Notes: generated by a model not told the origin, from the sequence alone. A DNA stretch of 64,000 bases from a virus (IMGVR_UViG_3300008448_012223); one strand, 5' to 3'; counted from the stretch's first letter, positions 1 through 54,325 are shown. Program-made: numbers and translations.

Positions 1-1137
1 GGCGTCATGCTCGCTGTAGCCGAGCTTGGCCATCTTAGTGAGCCACTCCTCAGAGCGGCTTCCGAAAGTTGTTACTAATGGGACGAGGTACTCTGGAGGA
101 TTCTCCCGTAGTAGCAATAGCTTATTAGCTACTGCTACCTTCAGGGTGGGTATATACCCCTCCTCCCCAAATATAGTTTCTTCGTTCTCTTTAAAGGCTT
201 TGAGCAAAGGGCGCTCAATAGCCCAACTAAGTTCCCCGTACAATTTACGGAGGGCTAGGCGCTTGTGGCCATTAAGCCATAAGTACTGGGCTATGGCCGT
301 GCGCCCCGAGTGGCACACCTCATTAAAGCGCTGCCAGAAGGCAGCGATGCGTTCGGTACGGGAACGACGGCGCGCCCGATCCCACTGTCCCCCCTCCTCT
401 TTCCAGAGGACCCCAGCAAGGGCTCGGAGGTCTGGGCGGGACTTGTACATAGTTCCCAGCCGTACGGCTAAAGATTTGGGAATCTCTGTGTTATATTTCC
501 ATGTCCGCGCAGCTGGGATTAGATCCCATACGTTACCAATGCGGGTGGGAACAGACATATGAACCAGTACCCGCTTAACCCAAATGGGTAAGCGGTTATA
601 GTTTGGGGTAAGCGCTACCCTTAACACTTTACTGTGATCCGGTTGGTAACCGGAGTTCCATACCCGCCCAGGGGTGCGGACATCCTCCCATAGAGGGAGG
701 ATGCGCTTGACCTCCCACCAGTACTTAACACCTAGATCTACTAAGTGTTCAGCCAGCTGAGGAGTTCTTAGCTCCTCGAACCAAACCCCTTCTTTCTCAT
801 AAGAGAGTCCGATACCCTCGTTTAAACGAAGGTATCGGATAAGGCGCAGGCGCACCATGTGCGCCTCCTTTGCTTCCTCCAAGCTTACTTCTCGGGTGAT
901 GACCCGAGAGATAATCCAGCGCTGGGAGCTGGATAGACTATTCCACTCCTCCCACTCACTCCAGGGAGTATGTGGATTGAGTTCCAGCCACTGCCGGAAC
1001 TCAAGTAGAACGTTATAAAGAGAGAAATAGTAGGGAGCGGGGTCAGCTCCTAACTCAGCTTGTGCCTCCCACTCAAGGGAGTAGGCAAGCTGAAGGCGAG
1101 CCGCCTTGGTTTTGGCGGATTTGATAAACTTAGACAT
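1..1137 (-). CDS. Hypothetical early protein, at least 379 aa, runs off the left edge (MSKFIKSAKTKAARLQLAYSLEWEAQ...)
   Basis: Manual translation: ATG at 1137 preceded by GGAGG and no stop down to position 1. Absent from the ORF track because the stop lies outside the window. No family recognised. Confidence 0.85.
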   Translation of the reverse strand, partial: MSKFIKSAKTKAARLQLAYSLEWEAQAELGADPAPYYFSLYNVLLEFRQWLELNPHTPWSEWEEWNSLSSSQRWIISRVITREVSLEEAKEAHMVRLRLIRYLRLNEGIGLSYEKEGVWFEELRTPQLAEHLVDLGVKYWWEVKRILPLWEDVRTPGRVWNSGYQPDHSKVLRVALTPNYNRLPIWVKRVLVHMSVPTRIGNVWDLIPAARTWKYNTEIPKSLAVRLGTMYKSRPDLRALAGVLWKEEGGQWDRARRRSRTERIAAFWQRFNEVCHSGRTAIAQYLWLNGHKRLALRKLYGELSWAIERPLLKAFKENEETIFGEEGYIPTLKVAVANKLLLLRENPPEYLVPLVTTFGSRSEEWLTKMAKLGYSEHDA

Positions 1138-1144
1138 AGAATTG

Positions 1145-1198
1145 TCCTCCTGGGACTAAAATTCACCAGAAGAAAAAAGGACCTTATCAAGACCCCTT
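1145..1198 (-). promoter_or_regulatory. Intergenic element copy 1 (terminator-like hairpin, U-tract, SD-occluding hairpin)
   Basis: Minus strand: hairpin-TTTTTTCTTCTGG-T-GA-attttag-TC-CCAGGAGGA, then ATG 1137. Confidence 0.75.
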
Positions 1199-1203
1199 AA
1201 TTA

Positions 1204-1347
1204 TTATTTATTTACCTCCTCACAGAGTGAAGATTTCAGGTCTCCGTAACAGGCCTCTACGGCTATTCCGCCAACAATGGCGGAGCAGCTAAATGTTAAT
1301 ATTATGATAGAGACAATATAGACGATATCGTACTTACCTAATTTCAT
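1204..1347 (-). CDS. 47-aa membrane microprotein, paralog A (MKLGKYDIVYIVSIIILTFSCSAIVGGIAVEACYGDLKSSLCEEVNK)
   Basis: ATG 1347 after AGGAGGA; hydrophobic helix followed by CYG-x4-SLC. The track ORF 1204..1398 is over-extended. Confidence 0.85.
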   Translation of the reverse strand: MKLGKYDIVYIVSIIILTFSCSAIVGGIAVEACYGDLKSSLCEEVNK

Positions 1348-1350
1348 AAT

Positions 1351-1408
1351 TCCTCCTAGGATTAATAGATCACTAGAAGAAAAAAGGGGATAAAGCATAT
1401 CCCCTTTT
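1351..1408 (-). promoter_or_regulatory. Intergenic element copy 2
   Basis: Minus strand: AAAAGGGGA..TCCCCTTTTTTCTTCTAG-T-GAT-ctatta-ATC-CTAGGAGGA. Confidence 0.8.
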
Positions 1409-1415
1409 AATTAAA

Positions 1416-1931
1416 TTACTTTAACCAGCTTAAGTCTAGCTGGTAATAGAGAAGTTTATCACTCTTCTCTATTGTCTCGAAGAGACCATAGAGGCACTCC
1501 TCGAGATGATCTCGGTCCACCCGGCTAGTCAGACCGAGCCCCTCCCAGGTAGGCTGAGGGGGTTTAATCTCTACCAAGCAGGTCTTGGTGATGCCAACAG
1601 CCAAACGAAGACTGTCGGTACGGCATAACTGGCCCAGCTTCTTATCTACTGCCTCGGCGTCGGTAGTAAGCTGAAGAGCCCATAGCTCGCCAGTATACTG
1701 GCGGACTATTACGTCCACCTTGTATACCCGGTCTAGTACTCCCCAATCATCAGTGGGGACGAGACGACGAAGGACACCGCCTCGGGAGTTGAGCTCTAGA
1801 TGTTCACCCGCGAGATCACGCGCCTGGTTATACAGATAACCCGTATTCCATATCTCTCGGGGCTTCGGACACTCGAAGCCTAACTCTTCAACTAGGCGTA
1901 ACACTACTTTCTCCATCTGTAAACCATTCAT
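1416..1931 (-). CDS. 171-aa protein, possible PD-(D/E)xK nuclease fold
   Basis: E7 in the first helix, LDRVYKVD(73)VIV, ALQ(87)LT(89): restriction-endonuclease-like D...QxT pattern, judged by eye. Confidence 0.5.
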   Translation of the reverse strand: MNGLQMEKVVLRLVEELGFECPKPREIWNTGYLYNQARDLAGEHLELNSRGGVLRRLVPTDDWGVLDRVYKVDVIVRQYTGELWALQLTTDAEAVDKKLGQLCRTDSLRLAVGITKTCLVEIKPPQPTWEGLGLTSRVDRDHLEECLYGLFETIEKSDKLLYYQLDLSWLK

Positions 1932-1937
1932 GATGTA

Positions 1938-1991
1938 CTCCTAGGATTATAGATCACTAGAAGGAAAAAGGGGCCCCCGCCCAGGCCCCTT
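1938..1991 (-). promoter_or_regulatory. Intergenic element copy 3
   Basis: Minus strand: AAGGGGCC..GGCCCCTTTTTCCTTCTAG-T-GAT-ctata-ATC-CTAGGAG. Confidence 0.8.
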
Positions 1992-1996
1992 AACTA

Positions 1997-2131
1997 CTAC
2001 TCTTTGTCTACCTCACATAGTGAAGACGGTAGAGGTCCATAACAGGCCTCATGGTATACTCCACCAACGATAGCGCCGCATACGCCAAGGATGACGGCAA
2101 CAGCCGCTATGTAAGATAATGTGTATTTCAT
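1997..2131 (-). CDS. 44-aa membrane microprotein, paralog B (MKYTLSYIAAVAVILGVCGAIVGGVYHEACYGPLPSSLCEVDKE)
   Basis: Manual translation (below the ORF-track cutoff); AGGAGGG RBS; shares AIVGG..EACYG..SSLCE with paralog A. Confidence 0.85.
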   Translation of the reverse strand: MKYTLSYIAAVAVILGVCGAIVGGVYHEACYGPLPSSLCEVDKE

Positions 2132-2134
2132 AAT

Positions 2135-2188
2135 CCCTCCTAGGGTTATAAGATCACTAAAAGAAAAGGGGCCTTACCAAGGCCCCTT
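2135..2188 (-). promoter_or_regulatory. Intergenic element copy 4
   Basis: Minus strand: AAGGGGCC..GGCCCCTTTTCTTTTAG-T-GAT-cttata-ACC-CTAGGAGGG. Confidence 0.8.
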
Positions 2189-2200
2189 ATTTATTATTTA

Positions 2201-2344
2201 TTATTTATTCACCTCCTCACAGAGTGGAGACTTCGGGTCTCCGTAACAGGATTCCACGGCTACTCCACCAACAATGGCGGAGCAAGTAATTGTTAGGAAT
2301 AGCATACATACAATGTATGCTATATCATACTTATCTAGCTTCAT
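2201..2344 (-). CDS. 47-aa membrane microprotein, paralog C (MKLDKYDIAYIVCMLFLTITCSAIVGGVAVESCYGDPKSPLCEEVNK)
   Basis: Manual translation; near-duplicate of paralog A; AGGAGGA RBS. Confidence 0.85.
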   Translation of the reverse strand: MKLDKYDIAYIVCMLFLTITCSAIVGGVAVESCYGDPKSPLCEEVNK

Positions 2345-2347
2345 ATA

Positions 2348-2397
2348 TCCTCCTAGGAGTTAACTTCACTAGAAGAAAAAGGGGCGCAGTGCCCCTT
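2348..2397 (-). promoter_or_regulatory. Intergenic element copy 5
   Basis: Minus strand: AAGGGGC..GCCCCTTTTTCTTCTAG-T-GA-agttaac-TC-CTAGGAGGA. Confidence 0.8.
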
Positions 2398-2404
2398 CTA
2401 TCAA

Positions 2405-2725
2405 CTACTTAACAAGGATGTAGTTGATGTTGAACTGGAGTATATCCTCCTCCGTCCATCGTTCTCCTTCTGCCAGCCGCCGGGGGCTGACAAATAAACA
2501 TACAATATACTCGGCCCCCGAGGGCACCTGTACCCGATTCACGGGTATGTTTACTCCGAGACGGGCGGAGAGGAGCTCCGCCGTAGAGAGGTGTCCGAGA
2601 GCACTTGTCCACTCAGTAGTGGAGAGGAGAGCGCGGGTCTCTTCCTCTGAAATACAAGTACTAGTGATAGCCCCACCCGGCGTGGTAGGGTAAAGGGAGT
2701 TTGGGAAAGAATTAAGAACGTACAT
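2405..2725 (-). CDS. acrIII-1: AcrIII-1 / DUF1874 family viral ring nuclease (anti-type III CRISPR), 106 aa
   Basis: Family hallmarks in the correct order and spacing: YVLNSF, SALGH(45)LST, NR(64), RR(83)LAE(86)G, TEEDI. Compare SIRV1 gp29 YLANAF, SIGH(47)DST, NR, RLEEG, TLEEI (recalled sequence). Confidence 0.85.
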   Translation of the reverse strand: MYVLNSFPNSLYPTTPGGAITSTCISEEETRALLSTTEWTSALGHLSTAELLSARLGVNIPVNRVQVPSGAEYIVCLFVSPRRLAEGERWTEEDILQFNINYILVK

Positions 2726-2728
2726 AAT

Positions 2729-2781
2729 CTTCCTCTAAGGTTTAAAGTTCACTAGAAGAAAAAGGGAGCATTACACTCCCT
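2729..2781 (-). promoter_or_regulatory. Intergenic element copy 6 (more diverged)
   Basis: Minus strand: AGGGAG..CTCCCTTTTTCTTCTAG-TGAactttaaacc-TTAGAGGAAG. Confidence 0.7.
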
Positions 2782-2794
2782 AAATTACCCCAAG

Positions 2795-3139
2795 TTACTT
2801 GATATAACCTGGGTTCCAGTTAATTACTGGTTCGACGACGAACTCACCGCCGAATATTACCATCTTAGACCAGACTATGCGTCTGGTTGGTAATGCAACC
2901 TCATCGTAGTAGTTTGGGTCGTCTTCGACGTACCACCAGGGGCGGTGGGCTTCGACGTTCCCGTCGAAAGCAAGGATGAAGACTGACCCGTATCCTCCAC
3001 GGGCGAAGTCCTTGGCCACTGCCAAACTGCGGCTGGCATAAAGAACTTCGCTACAACGATCCCAATCTAAGTGATCGTTGGTATGACCACGATAGGCGTA
3101 GTCATACTCCCTGGGAAGATGTTTATATATACTCATCAT
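2795..3139 (-). CDS. 114-aa protein, possible ADP-ribosyltransferase fold (R-S-E clade)
   Basis: AYR(17)G, LYAS(36)RS(38)LAVAKDFA, YYD(79)E(80)V: the three ART strand motifs, judged by eye. Confidence 0.5.
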   Translation of the reverse strand: MMSIYKHLPREYDYAYRGHTNDHLDWDRCSEVLYASRSLAVAKDFARGGYGSVFILAFDGNVEAHRPWWYVEDDPNYYDEVALPTRRIVWSKMVIFGGEFVVEPVINWNPGYIK

Positions 3140-3144
3140 AGGTG

Positions 3145-3197
3145 TTCTCCTGTGGACTAGTGTTCACAGAAAGAAAAAAGGGGCATTGCTGCCCCTT
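3145..3197 (-). promoter_or_regulatory. Intergenic element copy 7
   Basis: Minus strand: AAGGGGCA..TGCCCCTTTTTTCTTTCTGTG-aacactagtc-CACAGGAGAA; compensatory stem change to CTGTG/CACAG. Confidence 0.8.
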
Positions 3198-3214
3198 AAT
3201 TATTATTTATCTAC

Positions 3215-3358
3215 CTATTTATCAGTCTTACACATTGACAGTGCGGGGTAGTCGTAGCAGACAACCCGGTAGAAGGCGCCAAGAATTAGACCATTCACGC
3301 CGAGCACGAGTGCAGCAGCCACAATTAAACCGAGTATATCGTCTTTGATAGATTTCAT
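3215..3358 (-). CDS. 47-aa membrane microprotein, distant paralog D (MKSIKDDILGLIVAAALVLGVNGLILGAFYRVVCYDYPALSMCKTDK)
   Basis: Manual translation; AGGAGGAG RBS; TM helix plus CY-x6-S-x-C-like C-terminal Cys pair. Confidence 0.8.
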   Translation of the reverse strand: MKSIKDDILGLIVAAALVLGVNGLILGAFYRVVCYDYPALSMCKTDK

Positions 3359-3363
3359 AATGT

Positions 3364-3420
3364 CTCCTCCTGGAGATTATAGATCACCAGAAGAAAAAGG
3401 GGCCCTGCCCAGACCCCTTT
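3364..3420 (-). promoter_or_regulatory. Intergenic element copy 8
   Basis: Minus strand: hairpin-TTTTTCTTCTGG-T-GAT-ctata-ATC-T-CCAGGAGGAG. Confidence 0.8.
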
Positions 3421-3422
3421 TC

Positions 3423-3560
3423 TTATCTCATGTTTATATACTCCTGACGCACAGTCGGTATATTCTGGCCGTCTCCACGTTCTGGTAGCTGGCTGGCCAA
3501 TACCGTCATGAAGATAATAGGAATTACTACGACGCTGATAATTAGAGCTAATGATTTCAT
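3423..3560 (-). CDS. 45-aa membrane microprotein (MKSLALIISVVVIPIIFMTVLASQLPERGDGQNIPTVRQEYINMR)
   Basis: Manual translation; AGGAGGG RBS; N-terminal hydrophobic helix; fits between element copies 8 and 9. Confidence 0.75.
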   Translation of the reverse strand: MKSLALIISVVVIPIIFMTVLASQLPERGDGQNIPTVRQEYINMR

Positions 3561-3563
3561 ATA

Positions 3564-3615
3564 CCCTCCTAGGGTTATAGACCACTAGAAGGAAAAAGGG
3601 GCCAATTGAAGGGCC
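3564..3615 (-). promoter_or_regulatory. Intergenic element copy 9 (first unit; terminator hairpin weak)
   Basis: Minus strand: CCCCTTTTTCCTTCTAG-T-GGT-ctata-ACC-CTAGGAGGG; compensatory GGT/ACC inner stem. Confidence 0.75.
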
Positions 3616-3641
3616 GGGTGGGGGAGGGGATATACCCTATA

Positions 3642-3745
3642 ATACGCCCAAATACCGCCAGCAAGTTTATGGAATCTAAGAGCTCTAGGTATTAATACGT
3701 ATACACCCAAATACCGCCAGCAAATATCGAGAATCTAGAAGCTCA
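3642..3745. repeat. Two-copy direct repeat with a 59-bp period at the early/late divergence point
   Basis: CCCAAATACCGCCAGCAA identical at 3647-3664 and 3706-3723, each followed by GAATCTA-N3-AGCTC. Confidence 0.85.
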
Positions 3746-3799
3746 ATAATGAGGCAGAGAGGTGTAGTAGTATGGACCAGTTATATAGGAGGTAATGGT

Positions 3800-4426
3800 A
3801 TGTTAGAGGACATCAAGGGAGCGGTTAGGGTAGAGAAGTTGAGTGAGATACAGGTAAGGGAATTACAGAGGAGGCTAGGGATACAGCAGACAGGAATAAT
3901 GGGGCCAATGACGAGGAAGGCCTGGGAGGACTGGAAGAGGAGTAAGGGTATGGGGGAACCGGGGTTAATAGGGCCGGGTTCTATAGGTCTATTACTAGAG
4001 GAGATAAACTGGACGGATATGACGAGTAAGGTGAGTAAGTACTTCACAGTGAGAGAAGTAACGAAGGGGGAGGCGGCGCGCATACCAACGAGTAAGGTCA
4101 TCCAAGACAATATAATGAGACTAGCTAAGGAGTTAGATAAGATAAGGGAAGAGTGGGGTAAGCCCATTATAGTAACGAGTTGGTATAGGCCCCTTGCGAT
4201 TAACAGGGCAGTAGGAGGAGTGGATAATAGTCAGCATATAGAGGGGCTAGCAGTAGACATAGCGCCCATAGACCCCGCCGAGCTAATCGAGTTCGAGAGA
4301 TGGTTAGACGAGCATTGGTATGGGCCGCTGGGGTGGGGGGCCCAGAGTGGGAGGGGCTTCACGCACCTAGGGTTAACGAGGGGGTGGAGAGCAGGAGGAA
4401 AGAAGGGGCCCCGCTGGAGATACTAA
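3800..4426 (+). CDS. Lysin: N-terminal PG-binding-like domain plus peptidase M15 (Peptidase_M15_3)
   Basis: SKYFTVRE, SWYRP..N.AVGG..NSQH..G.AVDI, GFTHLG. ATG 3800 has AGGAGG; the track ORF starts at 3749. Confidence 0.85.
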   Translation: MLEDIKGAVRVEKLSEIQVRELQRRLGIQQTGIMGPMTRKAWEDWKRSKGMGEPGLIGPGSIGLLLEEINWTDMTSKVSKYFTVREVTKGEAARIPTSKVIQDNIMRLAKELDKIREEWGKPIIVTSWYRPLAINRAVGGVDNSQHIEGLAVDIAPIDPAELIEFERWLDEHWYGPLGWGAQSGRGFTHLGLTRGWRAGGKKGPRWRY

Positions 4427-4483
4427 TGCCTACCCCTCCCCATACAAGACAAGGAGCATTAGCATACTAATACAAGTAGAAGT

Positions 4484-5239
4484 ATGCTAAGAAACATTGA
4501 TAGAGCAATGCGGCTGCAAGAGTTAAATAGTCAGCAGGTGCGGGAGCTACAACAGGAGCTAGGTGGTTTAGTAGTAGATGGGGTAATGGGGCCGAGGACA
4601 GAGGCTAGGTGGAAGGAGTGGAAGGAGGCAAATAATCAAGCGGAGCCCGACCTAATAGGGCCAGGCTCTGTGCGTCTATTATTATCAGATGATGAAGTAA
4701 TGACGAGAGGAGAATACGATCTAGCGTTAGCCCCCGCCTCTAAGAGAGATAGAGATCGATACTACAGGCCCCTAATGGCAGCGATGGAGGAGTGTAATAT
4801 AAAGGAGCCCGCGCGTATAGCGATGTTCCTAGCTCAGCTGATGCACGAGTCAGGGAACCTACGCTACGATGAGGAGATATGGGGGCCCACACCAATACAG
4901 AGGGGATACGAGGGCAGGAGAGACCTCGGTAATATAAAGGTAGGAGATGGGCGAAGATTCAGGGGTAGAGGTTTATTTCAGTTAACGGGCCGGGCCAATT
5001 ACCAAAACATGGGGAATATGCTAGGGCTACCGCTAGTAGATAGCCCAGAACTAGCAAAGGAGCCCGTCAACTCAGCACGCATAGCAGCGCACTACTGGAG
5101 AACACGGGGGCTAAATGAAATAGCAGACAAGAATGATATAGACGCATTCAGGCAGGTAACGCGACGTATCAATGGCGGGCTGATAGGGTTATCAGATAGA
5201 CTAGAACACTGGAAGAGAATACAGGCAGTGCTGACATGA
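4484..5239 (+). CDS. Lysin: PG-binding-like domain plus GH19 (chitinase-like lysozyme)
   Basis: MFLAQLMHESGNLRY, GDGRRFRGRGLFQLTGRANY, INGGLIGLSDR; N-terminus paralogous to that of the M15 lysin. Confidence 0.9.
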   Translation: MLRNIDRAMRLQELNSQQVRELQQELGGLVVDGVMGPRTEARWKEWKEANNQAEPDLIGPGSVRLLLSDDEVMTRGEYDLALAPASKRDRDRYYRPLMAAMEECNIKEPARIAMFLAQLMHESGNLRYDEEIWGPTPIQRGYEGRRDLGNIKVGDGRRFRGRGLFQLTGRANYQNMGNMLGLPLVDSPELAKEPVNSARIAAHYWRTRGLNEIADKNDIDAFRQVTRRINGGLIGLSDRLEHWKRIQAVLT

Positions 5240-5646
5240 TAACAGGGAGGTTCCGTATATATCCGAGTAGAGACAACTATATGCTAGAGGAGGATAGTCA
5301 CTACTATGAGGCCCGCATTCACGACACTGTGGGATCTCTACTATTATGGGGGCACCAGAAGAGAGGGGGTCATACAGTAGACTATAAGGCCATAGTAATA
5401 CCAGACTATAATGTAAATGAGGATGGCTATATACATAGTAGAGTGGGATGGGTGGGGTTATGTCTCCCTTACCTAGATGCCGGTATAATAGCGCATGAGG
5501 CTCTACACATAGCCACATCATATCTGAGACTGAAGGGTCTACTTAAACTAGGAGAGGATATAGATGATGATGAGGAGATACTAGCATATACGCTAGGTAC
5601 GGTAATGAGCCAGATAGGGACATACATACATAAGAGATACAGTTAA
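5236..5646 (+). CDS. Hypothetical protein with an HExxH zinc-binding motif
   Basis: IIAHEALHIA followed by EEILAY; ATGA overlap with the GH19 gene. Confidence 0.7.
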   Translation: MITGRFRIYPSRDNYMLEEDSHYYEARIHDTVGSLLLWGHQKRGGHTVDYKAIVIPDYNVNEDGYIHSRVGWVGLCLPYLDAGIIAHEALHIATSYLRLKGLLKLGEDIDDDEEILAYTLGTVMSQIGTYIHKRYS

Positions 5647-5706
5647 TGTTATTACGGGAAGCGCTTAGTTCACTTAGGAGTTAATTTATCATTTAGGAGT
5701 TAATTT

Positions 5707-6627
5707 ATGACGTTACCTATTGTCGGCTCGAGATACGGATACGCAACTTATGGTTGGCGTACATCTGCGGTTGGCGGAGTATATTTTAATATGCCTAATT
5801 TTCTTTTATTCCTGGATGCTATTGGCATCACATCGACACATCGATTTGTCAGAGCGGATGGGACGCTAATTAATCTTCGATTTCCAGAAGTTGATACTGA
5901 TTTAATCCAGTTGGGAGATGTAACTGAAAGTCTTAGCCAGGGGCGGCATAGGGTGTCAATGGAACGTGCTAATAATAATGTTGGAACTAACCCATTTTTC
6001 TGGTCGCTCTTAGGGCACACCTATGCCACAAAAACTCAACTTAACGACACAAGATCTACAACAATAAGCCCGTATAGCGCAGCCTCAGGATACTTCTACG
6101 CCTGTGCCGATGATAAGGGGATTGCTATGTTCGCGGCGACTAATACTGGATTAACTACATATAGTGGCCAGACATCTTTTCACTATTTTGGATACTGCGA
6201 GGATCCAGCATCCGTAGCTTATTTTGGCAATAATAACAGCTATCCACTGGACTATGTTGGATCTGGCGGTAGTAATTTTATAAGATACAAAGATATGGTG
6301 GTACCTGGAGGAGGAGGCGGCGCGCAACCCTCTCAACCTGTGGTAGTTATTGGATCTATTAATTGCGTCACTCCTACTCCTGGTGCCAATATTACCGATC
6401 TTATGTTTAGAGATAGCGGCACTACCGATTACGGCATTAATTATCCACTGGGAATAGCGAGGCCGTTCTTATTATTTAGTAACCAAAATCTAGAAGTGAA
6501 TAGTCTAGTAAGGGTTATGTCAACCCCACCGACACCAGAAGATCACTTTCATATAGTAGTTAGCGCTGTTTCTGGTGGCGGCAGCATATTAATGCCAATT
6601 ATTACTGAAAATTACTCTCTGCCATAG
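5707..6627 (+). CDS. Putative tail-fibre/receptor-associated protein, paralog of 47635 and 48579
   Basis: C-terminal NC-x3-TPGANITDL-x2-RD...PFLL...SILM segment aligns by eye with 47635 (SCQAATPGANTTELYLRD) and 48579. Confidence 0.55.
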   Translation: MTLPIVGSRYGYATYGWRTSAVGGVYFNMPNFLLFLDAIGITSTHRFVRADGTLINLRFPEVDTDLIQLGDVTESLSQGRHRVSMERANNNVGTNPFFWSLLGHTYATKTQLNDTRSTTISPYSAASGYFYACADDKGIAMFAATNTGLTTYSGQTSFHYFGYCEDPASVAYFGNNNSYPLDYVGSGGSNFIRYKDMVVPGGGGGAQPSQPVVVIGSINCVTPTPGANITDLMFRDSGTTDYGINYPLGIARPFLLFSNQNLEVNSLVRVMSTPPTPEDHFHIVVSAVSGGGSILMPIITENYSLP

Positions 6628-6679: not shown

Positions 6680-7393
6680 TCAGCCTTGAGTTAGATCTGG
6701 CATAGCTGACTTAAGCTTATTGAATACCTGTATCTTATGGGCCACGCCGTGTACCGGTATGACTATGTTCTTACCTGTATTACCATTACATTTAAGGCAC
6801 GCGCTACACTGAGTCTCGTTAACTGAATAGAGACAGGCCTGCTCTCCCCTAATAGGTAGCTCACCATCTATAGCAACCCGATAGGTAGCCCAGCCCATAG
6901 AGTGGGCCAGCTTTAAATCCTCATATGACTCTACACTAGCATGGAGGTAGTTGCGCCACTCAGGGTCACAATCACGCCATCGATGAGTATAGCCAGTCCA
7001 TCCCGGTGCCTTATTAATCAGAGGTAGCCAGGCAGAGAGGGGCATCATAGCTGGATCGCCATAGGCTCCCAGGCGCAGGGGGAATGGTAACGTAGTGTTC
7101 TTCCAAGTATCGAGATCACCGCGTTCCCACATACGCCAGATGTTATTAGAGGCCCGCGGATCCACATAACACACCCGTTTCCGCAGAGGACAATCACCGC
7201 ATATACTACTATCAGCACCAGACTGTATATTAGATATAGGCGAGCCCTCCTGACGCAGAATATATGTCTGTATCATAAAGCCCGTCTTACGGTTCATACT
7301 GGGGCGCTGGAATCCACTGGCGAGAACTACTATAGGTTGGCTGTCCCATAGAGAAAGGCCACTCCATATCACGAGGGTACTACTTTTATACAT
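6680..7393 (-). CDS. Cys-cluster phage protein, possibly radical-SAM-like
   Basis: NRKTG.MIQTYIL, ICGDCPLRKRVCYV, LRLGAYGDP, GYTHRW, C-terminal CSACLKC. Confidence 0.5.
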   Translation of the reverse strand: MYKSSTLVIWSGLSLWDSQPIVVLASGFQRPSMNRKTGFMIQTYILRQEGSPISNIQSGADSSICGDCPLRKRVCYVDPRASNNIWRMWERGDLDTWKNTTLPFPLRLGAYGDPAMMPLSAWLPLINKAPGWTGYTHRWRDCDPEWRNYLHASVESYEDLKLAHSMGWATYRVAIDGELPIRGEQACLYSVNETQCSACLKCNGNTGKNIVIPVHGVAHKIQVFNKLKSAMPDLTQG

Positions 7394-7420
7394 AGAATAT
7401 AGTCTAGAATGGATTGAAGT

Positions 7421-7786
7421 ATGGTATTGTCATTGAAAAATATGCACACACAACTCGAAGATTGTGCTAGTCAACTACTAGTAGCAGCAGTAATCAAGAG
7501 AGATGAGGAAGCCACTGAGGCTATTCTAGATGTCATCGCCCTATTATTCACCGAGGCCGAGCAGATAGAACTAGCAGTTCATATGGCTTACAATAGCCTA
7601 GATGAGAGTGGATGTGACTGGCTTCAGGAGCAGATAGAATTGCTAGACTGTCCCTCAGCCGAGGTTAATCAGGAGGACTCGATGCGAGCACTAGAAGACG
7701 AGGGTATCTTTGTAATAGAGCAGGCCCTAGAACACACGTACGGTAAGTCGGAGCATGATGGTGAAACTAATACGATTCTTAAGTAG
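7421..7786 (+). CDS. Hypothetical acidic protein
   Basis: 121-aa ORF with phage-like codon usage, first of an overlapping gene run. Confidence 0.7.
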   Translation: MVLSLKNMHTQLEDCASQLLVAAVIKRDEEATEAILDVIALLFTEAEQIELAVHMAYNSLDESGCDWLQEQIELLDCPSAEVNQEDSMRALEDEGIFVIEQALEHTYGKSEHDGETNTILK

Positions 7787-8036
7787 TTTACTAGCTCTAG
7801 CACGCCTACTGAGTCGAGCTCATCTTACATGGGCCGGCCCGTATCTCACAGTAGACTACGAGGGAGTGATAATCCGTGTAGGTCAGGGGGAGTTGAGTAT
7901 AGATACCAGTAATCATATGATGATTAATTGCAATCACAAGGAGGATAGTAGACCAGATGTTTCCAGCGTGCAGGATAGGAGATATGGTGAGAAGCATATG
8001 CCCCAGGATACCCGACGGGCCTTTCTACACAGGTAG
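7755..8036 (+). CDS. Hypothetical protein
   Basis: ORF track; overlaps neighbours; a short beta-rich stretch (VIIRVGQGELSIDTS). Confidence 0.5.
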   Translation: MMVKLIRFLSSLLALARLLSRAHLTWAGPYLTVDYEGVIIRVGQGELSIDTSNHMMINCNHKEDSRPDVSSVQDRRYGEKHMPQDTRRAFLHR

Positions 8037-8214
8037 TCCTGATACTATGATTAATGGTAGACCCGCCATACGAATAGGAGACAAGTCAGTGCCGGGCCCT
8101 GCTATCACTGGCAGCCCGCGCACATTTATTAATGGCATACCCGCCGTGAGTATTATAGATCAGGTCTTCTGTGGCGTTATAATAACAGGTAGTGAGGATA
8201 CCTTCATAGACTGA
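7957..8214 (+). CDS. PAAR-domain spike-tip protein
   Basis: Repeated PACRIGD / TGSPDTMINGRPAIRIGD / TGSPRTFINGIPAVSIID / TGSEDTFI. Confidence 0.9.
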   Translation: MFPACRIGDMVRSICPRIPDGPFYTGSPDTMINGRPAIRIGDKSVPGPAITGSPRTFINGIPAVSIIDQVFCGVIITGSEDTFID

Positions 8215-9636: not shown

Positions 9637-9905
9637 CACTCTCAGACTATAGACTCACATACGAGATAACATCACTACCGACTATAATATTCGCTGGGAT
9701 GACCGCTGCGGATGAGCCATTTCACTTCACTCGCTTTGAGGTGCCCCCCATTAATGGTCCCATCGAGTGCCGCTTTTTACTATTCGATAAGTCAGGTAAT
9801 TTGATAGAGTTATCTAATCAATATGTGCACAGTACTGCGCTAGTGGCTACCTGCAATATAGTGCCACTGCGTATGATAGAAAAGCTAGTTAAACCAGATC
9901 CATAG
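9630..9905 (+). CDS. Hypothetical protein
   Basis: ORF track; 3' end overlaps the 3' end of the giant convergent gene by 17 nt. Confidence 0.55.
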   Translation: MVTLSDYRLTYEITSLPTIIFAGMTAADEPFHFTRFEVPPINGPIECRFLLFDKSGNLIELSNQYVHSTALVATCNIVPLRMIEKLVKPDP

Positions 9906-12900
9906 AGTAACTCTCGCTCTCATTTCGATAGGCCATACTATTAGGACGGTCTACTGTTAGGTCGCTCATATAGAGGGCGTCATAGGTGTCGTATTCATCA
10001 CCATTGAATATAGTTTGTACGAAGAACTCAACAGGGGAGCCCGCGTCATCTACGACCTCGGTTTCAGCATTATCCTCTCGTTCCATGCGAGCTCTATTCA
10101 TACTCTCTTGAGTAGCGCGTATACCGGCGCTAACAGCATCTAGAGCTACGGGGGCTACACTACGCTGCATACTGACCTCTAACCCACGATGGAGTAACTT
10201 ATTTACGAAGCCTGCTGATACGAGACTCAATGCCCCCGTGATGACGTTGCTAGCTACATTACGCAGGCCCGCGAATGGGTCAGAGTCTATTGTGGGAGCC
10301 TTACCGAGTGTCTTCTCTACGAATGGGTTGATGATATAGCGGCCTGCCAGTTGAGCTGTTGCGCCAAAGGCTATCTCCTGTGCTAGTAGCATACCGACAC
10401 CAATTGTATAGTCCTCGTGTAGTTGACCTGCTAGGCGTCCCTTGAATCCCATACTCATCAGAGTACCTGCGGCGAAACGTCCCAACTGGTTACCTGCTGG
10501 GGCGCTTACGTAGGCCATAGCGCCTAGCATATTACCCATAGTCTGCTGCATTGCCTCGGGGCGGGCTCCGCCACTACTAATCATATCTCCTGCCAGTGCC
10601 ATTAGGGGGAATAGAAGTACATCCATTATATTACCGGCAGTATTGTTAAGAATAGGTAGATCATCTGCTACGCGCAAGAGGGGGCGGTCTGGTCGCGGGC
10701 GAGGATCCAGTGGGTCCACATCAGGAGGTGAGCCGGCCAGTAGATAATCGCGCCGACGAGCTGCTAACTCCTTAGCCCTATCTGGGGCGACACCCATATC
10801 CTGTAGTAGTTTTATATAGCGCGTATCGACGTCACGGCTCTCATAGTCTCGTAGCTCCTCTACTAGTCTATCGGCTGTATCTACCTGCTGACCTAGTGCT
10901 GTAGCGCGAACATAAGTAACCAATCGACTAGTGGCTATCTCATCTGTGAGAACTGTCTTCTGAATAAACTCTATTATCTCCTTATCAGCTGGGCTAGGGG
11001 TGCCGCTATTGAGTAACACACTAAAGATATCTGCTATTTCATAGCGCTTACCATCAGCGTGAGTGAAGGTATCCATAAGAGACTCGAGGGCCCGTGCTAC
11101 CTGCTCAGGCTCGTTTATCTTCCCGGCCGATACAGCCTGTAACAGTGATCTAACTAGCGGACTAGCTCCTAAGCCAGTAGGGTCACCAGCGGCAGTAATC
11201 AGATCCTGACCGAGTACATCCTCTAGTTGTCCTCCGTATAGTGTGGAGCGGGTACTATCATTAATAGCGAAGCGCAGTAGTTTACTGCCATCAGTATTAG
11301 CCCAGAGTGATGCACTCTCCCTACTACGTAGGAAGTTCATAGCTAATATACGCTTAGTATTCGTACCCATATCCTGGAAGCGCTTATCTCCTATTACATC
11401 ACGAGTGAAGTTCTGGAACTCTTCTACTTCTATCTCCATCTCGGTGAGGCCATTAGTGATGCCACCTGCTATGAGGGCATCTATCTGAGCGGCCCGCGCG
11501 GGCTCGCTATTTATGTAGGTCTCCACACTCTCTGCTAGGCCTCTACCAGAGCTAATGGGGTTACCTGCCTTATCGGTTGGCATAGCCCGCTCAAAGGCGA
11601 ATACAGCCGCCATACCTACTAGGTCCTGTCGTAGTTGATAGCTGGCTATGAGGGCGCGGCTATGAGTACCTATCTCATCTCCTCGCAGTACACTCAATCG
11701 ACGAGATAAATCTAACTGCTCAGCCTCTCCAATGGAGAGTTTAGTCAGTAGATCATTAATCTTAGAGTCCTGAGCATCATTAGTAGCTGATGCCAGTAAT
11801 TCTTTATGAGCTTCTATATACGCATCTAACTTAAATAGAGGAGTTATAGACGGTAGTAGTTTACTCATATCATCCACTACACGCTGGCGCTCCACATCAT
11901 CGACGGCATCTACAAAGCGCTTATGGTACTGCGATAAGTTCTCTAGGAACTCAGCGCCACCCATCTTAGGCTTAATAGCATCCCGCAGCATTTGTTGTAT
12001 CTCTTGCAGGAATGTGCCTACCTCGCCTACCTCTGTCCTACTCTGGCGGGCCAGTCTCTGTATATCCGCTATCTTACTATCGGCCTCTAGGTTAGCATCA
12101 CTCGCGCTCATGCCACTTGCTATACCCTGATCGATTAGTATACGACGTATGTCATCCTGTAGGGCCGAGCTATTCTCTAGTGCGTGTGATACAGCCATGA
12201 TGGGGGAGCGCTCGTATAGCATACCCACGGTAGTATTATATGTCTTACCGAGGATTACACTACCTGCCTGACCCAGTACCTTCTGCATCATATCAAATTG
12301 ACCGCCGCTCATGACACTACCATCAGCGCGCTTCATGTACTTACTGAGATTATCGCGAGCATTAACAGCAGTTAATTTATGCAGGAAGTCATATGCCTTC
12401 TCTTCCTGATCGTTACCTGTAGCGCTCAGGATATCATGTAGACTAGCCCGCACGAATGGCCCTATATCAGGATTATTAACGAGATCGGTTAGTATGTTCT
12501 GGTCTGTAGAGGTAGATAATCTATTAACTATATCAACTGCACTATCGGTTCTACTCTGCTGTATTAACTCTAATAGGGATTCGTGAGCTGGGTGTATACG
12601 CGCGTATACATCCTCCATCATACCGAAGAGACCGCGGGCCTGTTCTACTAGTACCAGGGCATGTTCTATACCTCTCTGTTCCAGCATACCCTTATCTAAT
12701 TTCATATAGCCCGCTACCCAGCTATACACTGAGTCGGTATACTCATTCCAACTAGCATTAGTGGTTACCTGCTGTATAGTATCCAGTAGAGCACTGGCAC
12801 GCGTCTCTAAATCGCTAGCTTGCTTCTCTAGAATGGTACGCTTAGCGGGATCAGCAGCCTGAGATGCCATCTCCCGCCGCTCCTTAGCGCGTTCCAGCAT

Positions 12901-15900
12901 ATCATCGCGCTGCAACTTCATCTGAGAGTAATTGAAGAATATAGCGCTGAAGGTATCCCCGTCGAAGTCTCCTAGGTTACTGGCTATAAAGCTGATGGGA
13001 TTAAGTAGAGTCAATGACTTATTACGAGTATCATCAAAGAAGTTAAAGCCACTGCCAGTCAGGTCTCGGTATATGTTATTGATACTATTGAGTGTATCTA
13101 ATCCGAACACCAGCTTATCGAGATGGGTGTTCCCAGGGGGCGGGCTACGTTGAATCCAGGCTCTCGTTAACTCCAGCTCAGTGAAGAATATACTCATATC
13201 AGCCTGCAGAGTACTATTCATTATGAATAATGAATCGCGCGCTGCACGATTAGCCATAACTGGATCTAGTTCCATTGCATAGGCGGCGTTTGCATCACTT
13301 ACCAGCTTCCTATACTGAGTTATGAGAGCCACGCCTCTATTATGTAAATCAGTGCCCCGCGGGCTCTTACCTTCTAAATACGTATCTACAGCAGAGGTTA
13401 CGTCATTAATAGTTCTCTCTAGACTATCTAGTCTAGTAGAGAATGTATTCAGCATCTCAGCACCATCCTTACCACGCGTATCGCTGAAGAAGGATAGGTC
13501 TATGGGATTCTTACGTGCACGACCCTGTAGTAGATCCAGGTTATCAAACCTATTACCTAATGCATTAGTGTCAATGTAGATCCGCATATTATCAGGTATG
13601 ATAGAGCGGGCCGGGCCCTGACTACCTATCATGAGCCCAGAGATAATAATAGGTAAGTGACCCAGATCTCTATACTTATGAGTTTCAGCTCCAGGCAGAG
13701 ATTCCAGTATTGTGCCCATCTCGGCTTCACCTAGAGTAGATACCAGAGAATCCCCGCTACCGCTGAATTTCATGCTACTGAATCTATCCATCTCGGCCTT
13801 AATTTCTATCTCTAGATGAGCGTATTCAGCTGCCTGTAAACCAGGAGCCAGTTTTTCTATACCGGCTATCCTACTCTGGAAGTTCTTACTTTTATCTACT
13901 ACTGTCTCCAGCCCATACATGCCCGCTATACTGAGTCCCTCGGTTATAGCATATATCTGCTGTTGTATTAACCTACGACCAATTCTCTTATCACCTGATT
14001 GGCCAATAACAGACAGGTTATTCTTGAGATGGTCTCCTAATCTAGTAAGTATCTCCTCTCGTGTCTGACTACCTCGCGTACCGAAGCGCTCCATAGTGGC
14101 CTCTGCTAGTACGGCGCCACGCACAGGTACATACCAGCTAGCGGCCCCTACGCCAGTAGTACCTGTCACGCCTATTTTATTACCAGTGATAGGCTGCAGA
14201 TATGCGCTCGCCAGGTCATTATAAACGCGGGCCTCATAGGTGCTATTGAGTTCCTGGAACCTAGTCAACTCCTGTATCTGGAAGTCACTGAGGCCCTCTA
14301 GTTCAATAGTAGTCCTCGAACTAGACTCAATGGCTACCTTCTCGAAGATATCACGTACTGTACTACCGGGGGCCAGCATAACCCATTTATCTACTGTAGC
14401 AGCAGCTATCTCATTCTCGTGGCTACCGAACTGAATACCTGCTATTCTCACATCTTCAGGACTCAGGATAAATCCCCTCTCCTTAATAGCTGTATTGAAT
14501 ACAACGTTATTTCCCTCTATACGGAAGGAGGGAAACTCATAAGCTATACGACGAAGATTCTTCTGGCCCATTGACTGCACGGTAGCTTCAGTGGCCTCTA
14601 CACCCAGTACTTTATCTCCTGCTAGACGCCAGCGGGACGCATGGGCATATATATCATTCTTCAGGACACGAAGTGACTGGCGTACTACATTACGTAGAGT
14701 ATCTCTATCAGTCCCCGCAGGTTGGCCCATCCATGTCGCTATCTCATCAAGTATAGTATGAGTAACATTAGTAGTATCAGGGCCCGACCCTCTAGTATAC
14801 GACACCATGTCAGTATCACTGGCACTCTCGAGTAGAGACAATGCAGTGTGGAACTGCCGGTATCGCTCGCGTAGATTAGTTATATCGCTTAGTGGGGCCC
14901 GCGCATCGTTATACACTCCTAGTAATATCTCTCCTAGCGTAGAATTAGCATGGAAGTCTAGACCAGCCAGGTCATACATAGGAATATCATCCACCGCCAT
15001 CTTATTGGGGTCTGCCCCTATAGCCATCTTCATGACGCCAAGGATAGCCCTACGCATACTATCAACACTACCATCACGCTTGAATTTATCCACGTTAGCC
15101 ATGAAGGGACTAGATACTATATGCTGCATTTCTAGTTGCGCAGTGTCCTTACTACTCAATGGCACCTTAGAGCTACTACCCATCACGGCATTATATAGCA
15201 CTACATAGCGAGAGTAATTACTCAATCTATCGAGCATAACGGCCACGTTTTCCTGGCCTACGCTTATCTCATCTGCCTGCGTAACGCCTGCTATAACGCT
15301 CATAGCCGCATACGCATGACGAGATATACTATCGCTACCAGTCACTGGCGTAGTATTGAGCTCTAGGGTATTATTAAGTGACATGAGCTGCATCATAATC
15401 TCTAGGTTACCGGCTATAGCAGCGCGCTCAAAGCCGCGACCCATAGCCCCAGTATCTACATAACCCCTGCGCGCTGCATCTGCTGCATCTACTATCAGAC
15501 CTACCTTATTAGATAATGACCCACTACTAGTTCCACTACGCAGGGCTGTCATTATCTCTGATATATCAATGGCCCCTAGAACAGGACTCTGTAGTCTATT
15601 AATAGCACCGTCGCTCCCGCGTACTAGCTTCCTACCTATTTCGAGATGAGGGGAGCCATCTCCTAGCTTATCACTCTGCATAAGTTCCAGCATAGTAGAC
15701 ATATAGAGGTCACGATAGTAATTACCGAGCCGCCCCTGCGCTGCCAACTGTGCTATTTCTATATAGACAGTGTCTATATTGATATTGCTATTATTACTAA
15801 AGAGACGCGAATCAGCTATGGAAAGGAGAGCGGCCGCTATCTGCTGATCATTCCGTTCTAGTACCCCCCGACGAAATAGCTCCCCACCATTATAGGTAAG

Positions 15901-47634: not shown

Positions 47635-48495
47635 ATGAATTTCCCTCTCATTAACAACGATACTGCTGGCAACTCCTATTATGGCTGGAGAGCTAATAAT
47701 CTTATTTACAGTCCTGATTCTATAGGATTTACCGCAGACAAATGGCAAAGCTGGATTAATGGTTTTTTTGGGCAGACTTGCGTTGACGACCAATTTCAGC
47801 TAATACTACCAGCCCCTTTTGAAACTTTAAGTTTGCCTGTGTCATCTTCTAATTGGAGATTTTCTAACCTACATATAAATACAACAAATACTACTGGCAC
47901 TTTTGCAGCATCGATGCCATCACCAACTGGAAATCATACTCTGTTTAATTCTCAAGCAATTGGCACTACCACACGAGCCCATTATGGGATATTAAATAAT
48001 TTAAGTTTTTCTATGTTTTCTATAGATCTCAATAATGCTAATTATTCTTTTTGCAGTATAGGCTGGCTCAAGAATCCCCTTTATAGTGGTAGTGCTTTTC
48101 CTAGAAATTCGTATTATTTTTTCCACAATGCAAACGGTGGCGACAATTTTAATAGCAGTGGTCGTCCTTCTGCCGAAAATACTACTGTTTCGCAACGGAT
48201 GCAGTATCCGGCAGTTAATACTACCGACTCTATTGCTAATTACCCCGTTTCTTGTCAGGCGGCAACTCCTGGAGCCAATACCACAGAACTTTACTTGAGA
48301 GACAATGTTGCTCCAAATAAAGCTATAGGATATGTACCAAATCTATTAAAAACGAGCTTACAGATTCCCGTAGGACAAGTTTACCGAAATACAGGAATAG
48401 ACCCTGATGGTTCTAATATAGATACTTGGATGTGTGTTGGGATATTTGGCTCGGAAAGAATATTAATGCGCGTCTGGAATGCAGGATTAGTCTAA
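47635..48495 (+). CDS. Tail-fibre/receptor-associated protein, AT-rich host-like copy (paralog of 5707 and 48579)
   Basis: Shared SC-x3-TPGAN-x2-L-x2-RD..LL..ILMRV C-terminus. Confidence 0.6.
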   Translation: MNFPLINNDTAGNSYYGWRANNLIYSPDSIGFTADKWQSWINGFFGQTCVDDQFQLILPAPFETLSLPVSSSNWRFSNLHINTTNTTGTFAASMPSPTGNHTLFNSQAIGTTTRAHYGILNNLSFSMFSIDLNNANYSFCSIGWLKNPLYSGSAFPRNSYYFFHNANGGDNFNSSGRPSAENTTVSQRMQYPAVNTTDSIANYPVSCQAATPGANTTELYLRDNVAPNKAIGYVPNLLKTSLQIPVGQVYRNTGIDPDGSNIDTWMCVGIFGSERILMRVWNAGLV

Positions 48496-48578
48496 TCAAG
48501 TGATCTATCAAATCCTGAATTAGCCTAGCCAAAAAGCAATAAATCAAATTTCCATCTACTGTATACACAGGGCGAAGT

Positions 48579-49421: not shown

Positions 49422-49562
49422 CACCTGCGTATAGTTCTGACGCTGTATCTATTATTGGCTCTATTGCGACTGCCACGAACGACTCGTAACTGAGCGTTTA
49501 AGTGGTTTAACTTTGTTTCTAGCGTGTTCGTTTATTTGTCCTTGTTTTTTGAGTTTACTGAT

Positions 49563-49882: not shown

Positions 49883-49950
49883 AACACAACTAAATTCTTC
49901 CCCAAGTGACCAAAAAATCAAAAGTTTGTTCGGCAATTACATATATTTAA

Positions 49951-50520: not shown

Positions 50521-50530
50521 TGTTATTACC

Positions 50531-50863: not shown

Positions 50864-50867
50864 TGTT

Positions 50868-51365: not shown

Positions 51366-51370
51366 TAGCG

Positions 51371-54321: not shown

Positions 54322-54325
54322 TACT

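Follow-up and report, generated by a model that had tools for sequence, protein, structure and literature searches.

We identified nine copies of a unit of about 60 bases on the minus strand of the window, the whole 64,000-nucleotide stretch of viral DNA analysed here. They run from position 3615 to 1135, with one copy ahead of each gene of an array (Table 1). The phage carrying this array is a Fukuivirus, a Microcystis phage related to Ma-LMM01; an N4-like identity was rejected. The array has its homologues in Ma-LMM01 gp067-gp065, reported as 'middle' genes of low expression. At its head lie two tandem copies of a promoter-like repeat that occurs nowhere else in the window, is present in two to three copies in CH01 and Ma-LMM01, and is the element given as the gp067 promoter in Morimoto 2018. 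In both of these relatives a strong terminator stands between the promoter repeats and the first gene, an odd arrangement that would be unexpected in a plain operon.

Each unit consists of a GC hairpin, a tract of four to six T, CTTCT(A/G)GTG(A/G), a loop and C(T/C)AGGAG, followed by ATG after 4-8 nt. All nine carry AGGAG(G) or GAGG 4-8 nt ahead of the start codon. When the 64 kb window was searched with a covariance model built on relatives, exactly nine matches emerged, each on the minus strand within the array, with scores of 33-50 bits and E values of 1e-10 to 6e-6. The leftward array of nine copies proposed in the initial annotation was thus recovered, with every copy at its claimed place. 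An exact 10-mer of the repeat occurs eight times in the window, always within the array. Neither the window nor the complete genomes of Ma-LMM01 and CH01 contain the unit motif outside the array, and an Rfam search of the 64 kb window returned no family at gathering score. The architecture, with an identical unit core, recurs in a phage that shares just 25-30% identity in its gp064 homologue.

Table 1. Coordinates of the array features in the window. Units are numbered in the direction of the array. Hairpin 2 is the predicted masking hairpin, SD the Shine-Dalgarno sequence, and bits are scores of the covariance model.
Feature	Position	Strand	Description	Bits	Energy (kcal/mol)
Promoter-like repeat, two tandem copies of ~59 bp	3630..3745	-	TTGCTG, 17 nt, TATAGG/TATTAT; at array head		
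Unit 1	3558..3615	-	first hairpin 3600-3615, weak; T5 3593-3597; hairpin 2 3562-3594; SD 3565-3568; ATG 3558-3560	45.3	first hairpin -6.4; hairpin 2 -14.8
Gene 1	3423..3560	-	45 aa, hydrophobic, orphan; none found in family search		
Unit 2	3356..3417	-	terminator 3399-3417; T5; hairpin 2 3363-3396 (CTGG/CCAG); SD about 3364-3371; ATG 3356-3358	45.9	terminator -11.4; hairpin 2 about -15
Gene 2	3215..3358	-	47 aa, membrane protein with single helix, small family 'A'		
Unit 3	3137..3197	-	terminator 3178-3197; T6; hairpin 2 3143-3176 (CTGTG/CACAG, register shifted by one); SD 3147-3150; ATG 3137-3139	32.8	-10.0
Gene 3	2795..3139	-	114 aa, Ma-LMM01 gp067 homologue, phrog_35503		
Unit 4	2723..2781	-	terminator 2763-2781; T5; hairpin 2 2729-2761 (two G.U pairs); SD GAGG 2732-2735; ATG 2723-2725	38.9	-8.1
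Gene 4	2405..2725	-	106 aa, STIV B116-like (PF08960), phrog_5063		
Unit 5	2342..2395	-	terminator about 2381-2395; T5; hairpin 2 2346-2378; SD 2349-2352; ATG 2342-2344	41.6	-9.9
Gene 5	2201..2344	-	47 aa, membrane protein, family 'A'		
Unit 6	2129..2188	-	terminator 2166-2188; T-tract; hairpin 2 2133-2166 (TTAG/CTAG, U.G); SD 2136-2139; ATG 2129-2131	40.3	-6.0
Gene 6	1997..2131	-	44 aa, membrane protein, family 'A'		
Unit 7	1929..1991	-	terminator 1968-1991; T5; hairpin 2 1934-1966; SD 1938-1941; ATG 1929-1931	49.8	-8.9
Gene 7	1416..1931	-	171 aa, Ma-LMM01 gp066 homologue, phrog_28304		
Unit 8	1345..1408	-	terminator 1382-1408; T6; hairpin 2 1349-1382; SD 1352-1355; ATG 1345-1347	47.9	-12.2
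Gene 8	1204..1347	-	47 aa, membrane protein, family 'A'		
Unit 9	1135..1198	-	terminator 1176-1198; T6; hairpin 2 1143-1175 (CTGG/CCAG); SD 1146-1149; ATG 1135-1137	47.2	-11.6
Gene 9	1..1137	-	>379 aa, continues past window edge		

Terminator-type hairpins and a predicted ribosome-site mask

The first half of the unit has the form of an intrinsic terminator (a GC-rich stem of 5 bp or more, then a short loop and a U-tract). A GC hairpin followed by four to six T is present in eight of the nine units rather than in every copy as first described; unit 1, which has no upstream gene, has only a weak 4-bp first hairpin. A terminator scan flagged seven of the nine first hairpins, against 3.5 expected for the whole region. 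Published transcript levels in Ma-LMM01 are flat from gp067 to gp064 (log2 FPKM 7.9, 6.8, 6.6 and 7.5 at 3 h), and five or six terminator-type hairpins lie in between. This flat profile argues against strong termination along the Ma-LMM01 array, and reflects either poor termination in vivo or a restart of transcription at each unit.

In the predicted fold of the second hairpin, AGGAG is paired with CUUCU, and often with the T-tract too, by way of an invariant U.G, which buries the entire Shine-Dalgarno sequence. The stem is therefore longer than initially drawn, when only the start of this sequence was thought to be occluded. The minimum-energy fold pairs all four Shine-Dalgarno bases in 53 of 57 distinct copies from 14 loci. 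The Shine-Dalgarno sequence has an unpaired probability of 0.06, compared with 0.46 at ten GGAG-ATG sites elsewhere in the window (p=0.003). Unit 6 is the weakest masking copy, with an unpaired probability of 0.46. Helices in the window are predicted to span 10-12 bp, and the longest elsewhere, in one G001 copy, reaches 18 bp; loops are 5-13 nt or more. In 46 of 51 copies the fold is stronger in the sense RNA (-10.9 kcal/mol) than in the antisense (-7.8 kcal/mol), and one-sided pair changes are nearly all to G.U. The G.U pattern and the fixed register with the Shine-Dalgarno sequence point to a structure at the level of RNA.

The stem variants listed in the initial annotation are all present (numbering copies from the left, CTAG/CTAG in 2, 3, 5 and 9; CTGG/CCAG in 1 and 8; CTGTG/CACAG in 7; GGT/ACC in 9), as are GTGATC, seen in four copies, and the bulged T of the second stem. 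Across all copies compared, about 90% of pair cells are paired, versus 45-72% when the partners are slid, and the 29 double-change cells were matched in none of 500 shuffles. Independent stem versions include CTGG/CCAG, CTGTG/CACAG, TTGTTG/CAACAA and an inner GGGC/GCCC. Double changes cluster at two pairs, and the copies comprise both paralogues and orthologues, so that these counts are not counts of independent events; the evidence from covariation is thin. Pairing is maintained and sequence is conserved too; the earlier conclusion that structure rather than sequence is under selection was overstated. In the 5' arm the bulged T (69/69), a G (60/61) and an A (53/59) exceed their 3' partners, which reach about 0.9 bits. 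Conservation of these bases beyond the needs of pairing suggests a second, sequence-specific reader.

A proposed composite module boundary

We hypothesize, with a probability of roughly 0.6, that the nine repeats are PeSL-like module boundaries in a hyperplastic array of a Ma-LMM01-like Fukuivirus, at which a terminator is combined with a translation mask and with a point of recombination. Judging by its form, the first hairpin with its U-tract would end the upstream gene. Hairpin 2 would then mask, in the sense RNA, the Shine-Dalgarno sequence of the next gene on any RNA containing the whole unit, a translational effect that we infer from the computed fold. Its predicted stability is held at a moderate level (-6 to -17 kcal/mol) by the invariant U.G in its centre together with the bulged U; a helix of this kind could damp translation or could open via standby 30S/S1 on the U/C tract, via cleavage or via a factor. 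The roughly 45 conserved bases also supply homology between unrelated genes, through which one-gene cassettes are inserted, deleted, duplicated and reordered by recombination.

The PeSLs (promoter-early stem-loops) of T4-type myoviruses (Arbiol 2010, PMC2839356; Comeau 2014, PMC4122927) resemble the unit in combining a terminator stem-loop, a regulatory block, a Shine-Dalgarno sequence and a start codon, in being repeated ahead of small orphan genes in hyperplastic regions, and in that indels, replacements and displacements between close relatives stop within them. The terminator stem-loop, the Shine-Dalgarno sequence with its start codon and the hyperplastic location are all found here, but the sigma-70 promoter is not: PeSLs carry -35/N17/-10 between stem-loop and Shine-Dalgarno sequence, whereas the unit has neither such a space nor a -10 signal and instead has the hairpin predicted to mask the ribosome site. 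The lineages also differ, being T4-type in one case and a Fukuivirus of Microcystis in the other.

By analogy, what stands in the place of the PeSL promoter would be a translation mask similar in kind to that of T4 gene e. The hairpins of T4 gene e and I-TevI likewise hide the ribosome site on upstream RNAs, have similar predicted stability and cut translation about 100-fold (PMC3014915). In T4, however, a late promoter lies in the DNA of the 5' strand and proximal transcripts escape the mask, while in the unit such a promoter is hypothetical; moreover, the T4 masks belong to single genes, whereas here the mask is repeated and fused to a terminator. Thermometers that pair the Shine-Dalgarno sequence (fourU, ROSE and the cyanobacterial hsp17 leader) also set U/C-rich bases against AGGA in one hairpin weakened by G.U and a bulge, but each is a lone leader in front of a heat-shock or virulence gene.

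Other readings of the repeat

An alternative, to which we give tentative and clearly minority weight, is that the T-tract and 5' arm (TTCTAGTGA) form a promoter for a phage-encoded RNA polymerase, with transcripts beginning in the 3' arm or the loop. Only mRNAs initiated at the unit itself, which would be missing the masking strand, would then have a free Shine-Dalgarno sequence and be translated; RNA reading through from upstream would keep the mask and be untranslatable. Each unit might, with the same low confidence, be a self-insulating expression module for a two-barrel phage polymerase, with T-tract + TTCTAGTGA as promoter and the terminator halting incoming transcription. The array, ending in a gp064-type polymerase gene, would in that case amount to a plug-and-play rack of cassettes served by a transcription system of its own, in contrast to the published description of this phage group as wholly dependent on host sigma-70. 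Consistent with such a promoter are the excess conservation of the 5' arm, the flat FPKM along serial terminators, the terminator placed between sigma-70-like promoters and first gene in Ma-LMM01 and CH01, and the precedent of T4 gene e and I-TevI (PMC3014915). A gp064-type giant gene ends both arrays, including that of the phage with a 25-30% identical gp064 and an identical unit core, and the window's giant ORF contains GDFDGD. Two-barrel phage polymerases with motifs of their own are known: Thermus phage P23-45 (PMC10770324) likewise has two giant candidate polymerases, one virion and one non-virion, and a conserved short motif repeated before a run of small genes, and seven of its termination sites share a 26-nt motif that is also conserved. 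The P23-45 motifs, however, were mapped by ONT-cappable-seq and ChIP and share no sequence with the unit, whereas the two giant proteins here are only tentatively assigned as polymerases, from one motif. Against this promoter, too, CUUCU and CTAG are already accounted for by pairing with the Shine-Dalgarno arm, the first unit keeps its full hairpin even though it lies downstream of the promoter-like repeats, and confinement of the motif to the array would make it a promoter class for a single array.

It is somewhat more doubtful still that the unit acts in RNA processing and stability, with a host endonuclease (e.g. RNase E) cutting the single-stranded U/C tract between the hairpins. The products would be one-gene mRNAs with a protective hairpin at the 5' end and the terminator hairpin at the 3' end; a cut within the 5' arm would unmask the Shine-Dalgarno sequence. 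A U-rich single strand between two stable hairpins in every unit and the equal transcript levels of the cassettes favour this, as does the shielding of T4 mRNAs from RegB where GGAG lies within secondary structure (PMC3014915). Since the U-tract itself enters hairpin 2, however, often no more than 2-5 unpaired bases separate this hairpin from the terminator stem, and there is no sequence feature specific for a known RNase. Such processing is compatible with the composite boundary rather than excluding it. RNase III, as at the R sites of T7, needs about 20 bp, or about two turns of dsRNA, often with an internal loop; a site of this type, one of the options raised in the initial annotation, is unlikely because the stems here are only 10-12 bp.

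Two further possibilities are very improbable. One is a sigma-70 promoter of the host whose -10 box would sit in the AT-rich loop, in the fashion of PeSLs; four window loops read TATAAT or TATAAC, and a -35 is often absent from cyanobacterial promoters. Yet TANNNT is unenriched: of 33 and 12 distinct loops it occurs in 12 and 4, respectively, against 10.1 and 4.6 after shuffling, and a consensus promoter scan found none in any unit. With only about 20-27 nt from T-tract to Shine-Dalgarno sequence, a -35 would fall in the terminator stem, and a start 7 nt past the loop would delete the conserved Shine-Dalgarno sequence. Equally remote is a hairpin acting in DNA, either as an N4-type promoter on extruded single strands or as an attC-like recombinase site. 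Inverted repeats with a conserved bulged base in a cassette-like array would fit it, and crAss-type virion polymerases favour single-stranded templates. Like the unit, N4 vRNAP promoters are small hairpins that precede genes, and both phages encode a protein of ~3500 aa; the N4 hairpins form on the template strand, with a 5-7 bp stem and a purine-centred loop of 3 nt, and are recognized by a T7-like virion polymerase. The N4 analogy drawn in the initial annotation failed on several counts: the phage is a Fukuivirus, the loops span 5-13 nt or more rather than 3, the Ma-LMM01 homologues are middle rather than early genes, and searches with the giant ORF gave no match by sequence to solved polymerases (N4 vRNAP included) and none in PDB or Pfam, so that this search found no N4-like polymerase. 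N4 geometry would also place the RNA start at or past the Shine-Dalgarno sequence. On the template strand the invariant U.G and many other G.U pairs become C.A, with the weaker antisense folds noted above, and the 3' arm is fixed at the Shine-Dalgarno sequence 4-8 nt from ATG, a translational register. Integron attC sites are imperfect palindromes carrying extrahelical bases, on which a neighbouring IntI integrase acts; the unit has a bulged T, but the G.U pattern and this register point to RNA, and a scan of nine flanking proteins gave no recombinase domain.

Cassette exchange between relatives

The recombination role that the composite boundary assigns to the roughly 45 conserved bases is shown by comparison of related sequences. 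Endpoints of homology blocks fall inside units (+-10 nt) in 24 of 26 cases, against 7.5 expected (p=1.6e-11), which agrees with the earlier suggestion that the units are points at which cassettes are shuffled. Comparing cassettes across relatives, as had been proposed, revealed that both content and order vary among the 12. Gene 9 with its own unit (block 1180-1), for example, is last in the window's array and occupies array position 1 in the relatives L022 and L026.

Layout and predicted folding of the repeat unit

The repeat ahead of the cassette genes is a real element. Nine units lie on the minus strand, one ahead of each array gene, and share a single order of parts: a GC hairpin (hairpin 1), T4-6, CTTCT(A/G)GTG(A/G), an AT-rich loop and C(T/C)AGGAG(G), followed after 4-8 nt by ATG. 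Read on that strand, the per-copy details of the initial annotation were correct. An exact 10-mer occurs eight times, always within the array, and a covariance model built on relatives recovers nine copies in the 64 kb and no more, every one in the array. No family was matched in an Rfam search of the window, and a literature search found no description of the unit for Microcystis phages. We infer that the unit functions as a stereotyped fusion of a terminator and a ribosome-site mask.

Coordinates of features in the window and related genomes
Feature	Coordinates	Strand	Remarks
Array, counterpart of Ma-LMM01 gp067-gp065	3615-1	-	Flanked by endolysin genes and 1673-aa gp064
Start codons after units 1-9	3560, 3358, 3139, 2725, 2344, 2131, 1931, 1347, 1137	-	
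44-47-aa paralogues	3215-3358, 2201-2344, 1997-2131, 1204-1347	-	One hydrophobic helix; C-terminal C-Y-G ... S-x-L-C motif
STIV B116-like cassette	2405-2725	-	PF08960, E 2e-12
Promoter-like repeats (~59 bp)	3630-3745	-	TTGCTG, 17 nt, TATTAT/TATAGG, then C-rich run
Same, Ma-LMM01 (L001)	7290-7440		
Same, MaMV-CH01 (L002)	7900-8100		
Leader and terminator, Ma-LMM01 (L001)	7120-7290		Leader ~110 nt
Leader and terminator, MaMV-CH01 (L002)	7780-7900		Leader ~110 nt
gp064, Ma-LMM01 (L001)	2-4690		
2032-aa ORF, G001 (L028)	81-6176		Colinear with gp064
3562-aa ORF, gp080 homologue	9889-20577	-	GDFDGD at residue 2537
Low-GC block	48000-56000		GC fraction ~0.47 to 0.33-0.38 across ~8 kb

Hairpin 1 has the canonical form of an intrinsic terminator, and a terminator scan, whose coordinates we took as the terminator bounds of the units, flags seven of the nine. 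Unit 1, which has no gene upstream and is placed after two promoter-like 59-bp repeats, combines a hairpin 1 of only 4 bp with a full hairpin 2, a makeup that fits a termination role for the former and a distinct role for the latter.

The CTAG/CTAG stem first proposed for hairpin 2 is real but incomplete: CUUCU just upstream forms further pairs with AGGAG, the central one being U.G, and the lower stem thereby reaches 7-9 bp with the whole Shine-Dalgarno (SD) sequence inside. Beyond it the predicted fold has a bulged U and 2-4 inner pairs, and in many copies the helix is lengthened by pairing of the terminator's own U-tract with purines 3' of the SD. Predicted energies of the window copies range from -6 to -15 kcal/mol, and among 57 distinct copies drawn from 14 loci, 53 are predicted to have all four SD bases paired. 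The probability that the SD is unpaired is 0.06 in the window units; the window has just ten further gene starts of the form GGAG-N4-10-ATG, and for these the value is 0.46 (p=0.003). Strong SDs thus cluster in the array, and they are masked there. For 46 of the 51 copies examined the sense RNA has the more stable fold, and this strand bias, together with the fixed SD-ATG register, points to coding-strand RNA rather than a DNA cruciform. The repeat itself, the predicted mask and its strand bias are demonstrated by the present analysis. GTGATC, initially read as a second block pairing with 16S rRNA, is located upstream of the SD, opposite to the order that a continuous extended SD would require, and is treated here as coincidence; a distant lineage has GTGAAC in its place.

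Conservation of the unit and exchange of cassettes

The first 8 kb of the window are 86-91% identical to Ma-LMM01, MaMV-DC, -CH01/02, -DL01/02 and -DH01 (genus Fukuivirus). All Fukuivirus isolates carry the unit, as do eight IMG/VR contigs; in the complete genomes of Ma-LMM01 and CH01 it is found nowhere but in the array. Of the pair cells in 34 distinct Fukuivirus copies, 90.3% hold standard pairs, versus 48-72% with partners slid; the value is 89.6% for 69 distinct rows aligned to the covariance model. Both sides have changed in 29 cells of those rows, a count matched by 0 of 500 shuffles. These double changes fall mostly in two pairs (A-U to G-C, and C-G to U-A), one-sided changes are nearly all G.U, and a CTGG/CTAG intermediate state is seen in one orthologous pair. 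Other independent stem versions are CTGTG/CACAG and one copy with a long loop, while those of the distant lineage are TTGTTG/CAACAA and inner GGGC/GCCC; the two lineages were counted separately, as their 3' arms were misaligned when both were put in one MAFFT alignment. The bulged T is invariant (69/69), and the G and A that follow carry 1.9 and 1.4 bits versus 0.9 bits for their partners. The structure is therefore maintained; the copies, though, are related to each other, and strong conservation extends to their sequence as well. The earlier claim that structure rather than sequence is under selection was too strong, since bases of the 5' arm are conserved beyond their partners.

All twelve arrays compared differ in which cassettes they hold and in how these are ordered; gene 9 and its unit, for example, stand last in the window and first in two related loci (L022 and L026). 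The suggestion that units are recombination points is borne out by the endpoints of homology blocks, 24 of 26 distinct ones lying inside the unit ±10 nt versus 7.5 expected (p=1.6e-11). At the level of sequence comparison, these data show cassette exchange at the units, and the unit explains how unrelated small genes are swapped among phages as one-gene cassettes. Four of the nine cassette genes encode paralogous 44-47-aa membrane proteins, for which no Pfam or PHROG family was found, and the remainder are mutually unrelated. Across relatives these paralogues are the most frequent cargo, with 25 copies in 15 arrays. Another cassette encodes an STIV B116-like protein, whose family was originally recognized in a virus of archaea. 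The swapped genes are probably host-interaction or anti-defence genes. A metagenome motif scan returned 80 loci, of which the covariance model retained one real array (L125, similar to L019) and dismissed the others as single chance palindromes.

The closest known kind of element is the promoter-early stem-loop (PeSL) of T4-type phages (PMC2839356; PMC4122927), with which the unit shares four of five defining features, the promoter being the one it lacks. In its part as a recombination handle it acts like the PeSL, and as a mask like the leader of T4 gene e. The array extends the idea of regulatory sequences as recombination handles past T4-type phages, with a translational part replacing the transcriptional one.

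Expression of the array and alternative readings

In the mechanism that we favor, hairpin 1 would stop transcription and hairpin 2 would reduce or gate translation, the U.G and the bulge keeping helix 2 openable. Helices of such strength normally depress initiation strongly, and an upstream U/C tract could act as a standby site for 30S/S1. The masking hairpin of T4 gene e has a ~100-fold effect on translation (PMC3014915). Translational coupling was rejected as a means of opening the mask, as upstream stop codons lie 1-22 nt ahead of the terminator stem and too distant from hairpin 2.

At the array head, every relative carries 2-3 tandem copies of the promoter-like repeat, which is conserved far past its two hexamers and of which no further copy was found elsewhere in the window. 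Between these repeats and the first gene of the array, Ma-LMM01 and MaMV-CH01 have a conserved leader and a strong terminator; this leader is absent from the window. Published log2 FPKM values of Ma-LMM01 gp067-gp064 are low and flat (7.9, 6.8, 6.6 and 7.5 at 3 h), against ~10-12 for most other listed genes and 9-12.5 for the adjoining early genes gp054-gp063. Flat expression and a strong terminator after the promoter repeats complicate the picture of a plain operon. Either the hairpins are inefficient terminators during infection, or each unit starts transcription anew. Such restart agrees with the excess conservation of the 5' arm and with the design of T4 gene e, where a promoter sits inside the masking strand. 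The version in which a phage polymerase would read the 5' arm as promoter we consider rather unlikely. If correct, it would provide the first recognition site for the phage's candidate polymerase. The 3562-aa homologue of Ma-LMM01 gp080 had no match in Pfam and PDB sequence searches; its GDFDGD motif, the catalytic, metal-binding signature of two-barrel RNA polymerases, offers a motif-level lead to such an enzyme. The proposed analogy to N4 hairpin promoters fails, as the phage belongs to Fukuivirus and is thus not N4-like, the giant ORF lacks a PDB sequence match, and nearly all copies (46 of 51) fold less stably as antisense. The loop sequences gave no support to a host -10 box at that place, and this reading was likewise rejected.

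The array, read as a series of terminators and masks, bears on how Ma-LMM01-type phages time the expression of their genes. These phages are the main viruses in culture that infect Microcystis, a toxic bloom-former, and their published transcriptome reported host-like promoters only and left the temporal classes unexplained.

A distant virus and further observations

In a 168-kb IMG/VR virus (G001) the stem takes a perfect 11-bp form, CTTCTAGTGAA paired with TTCACTAGGAG, in 15 or more units, and a second viral scan for this perfect palindrome found many copies in G001 only. Its array terminates in a 2032-aa ORF with 25-30% identity to gp064; a search with three window proteins found nothing in G001, and its kinship is visible in the gp064-type protein only. 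Retention of the unit core despite such divergence implies that the core sequence is conserved over a large evolutionary distance. The aligned ends of the two proteins read NRGDGDG (G001) and NEGDADG (gp064), and the unit ahead of Ma-LMM01 gp064 consists of terminator and 5' arm without AGGAG. Elsewhere in the window, the drop in GC fraction across the low-GC block suggests a different origin for that region.
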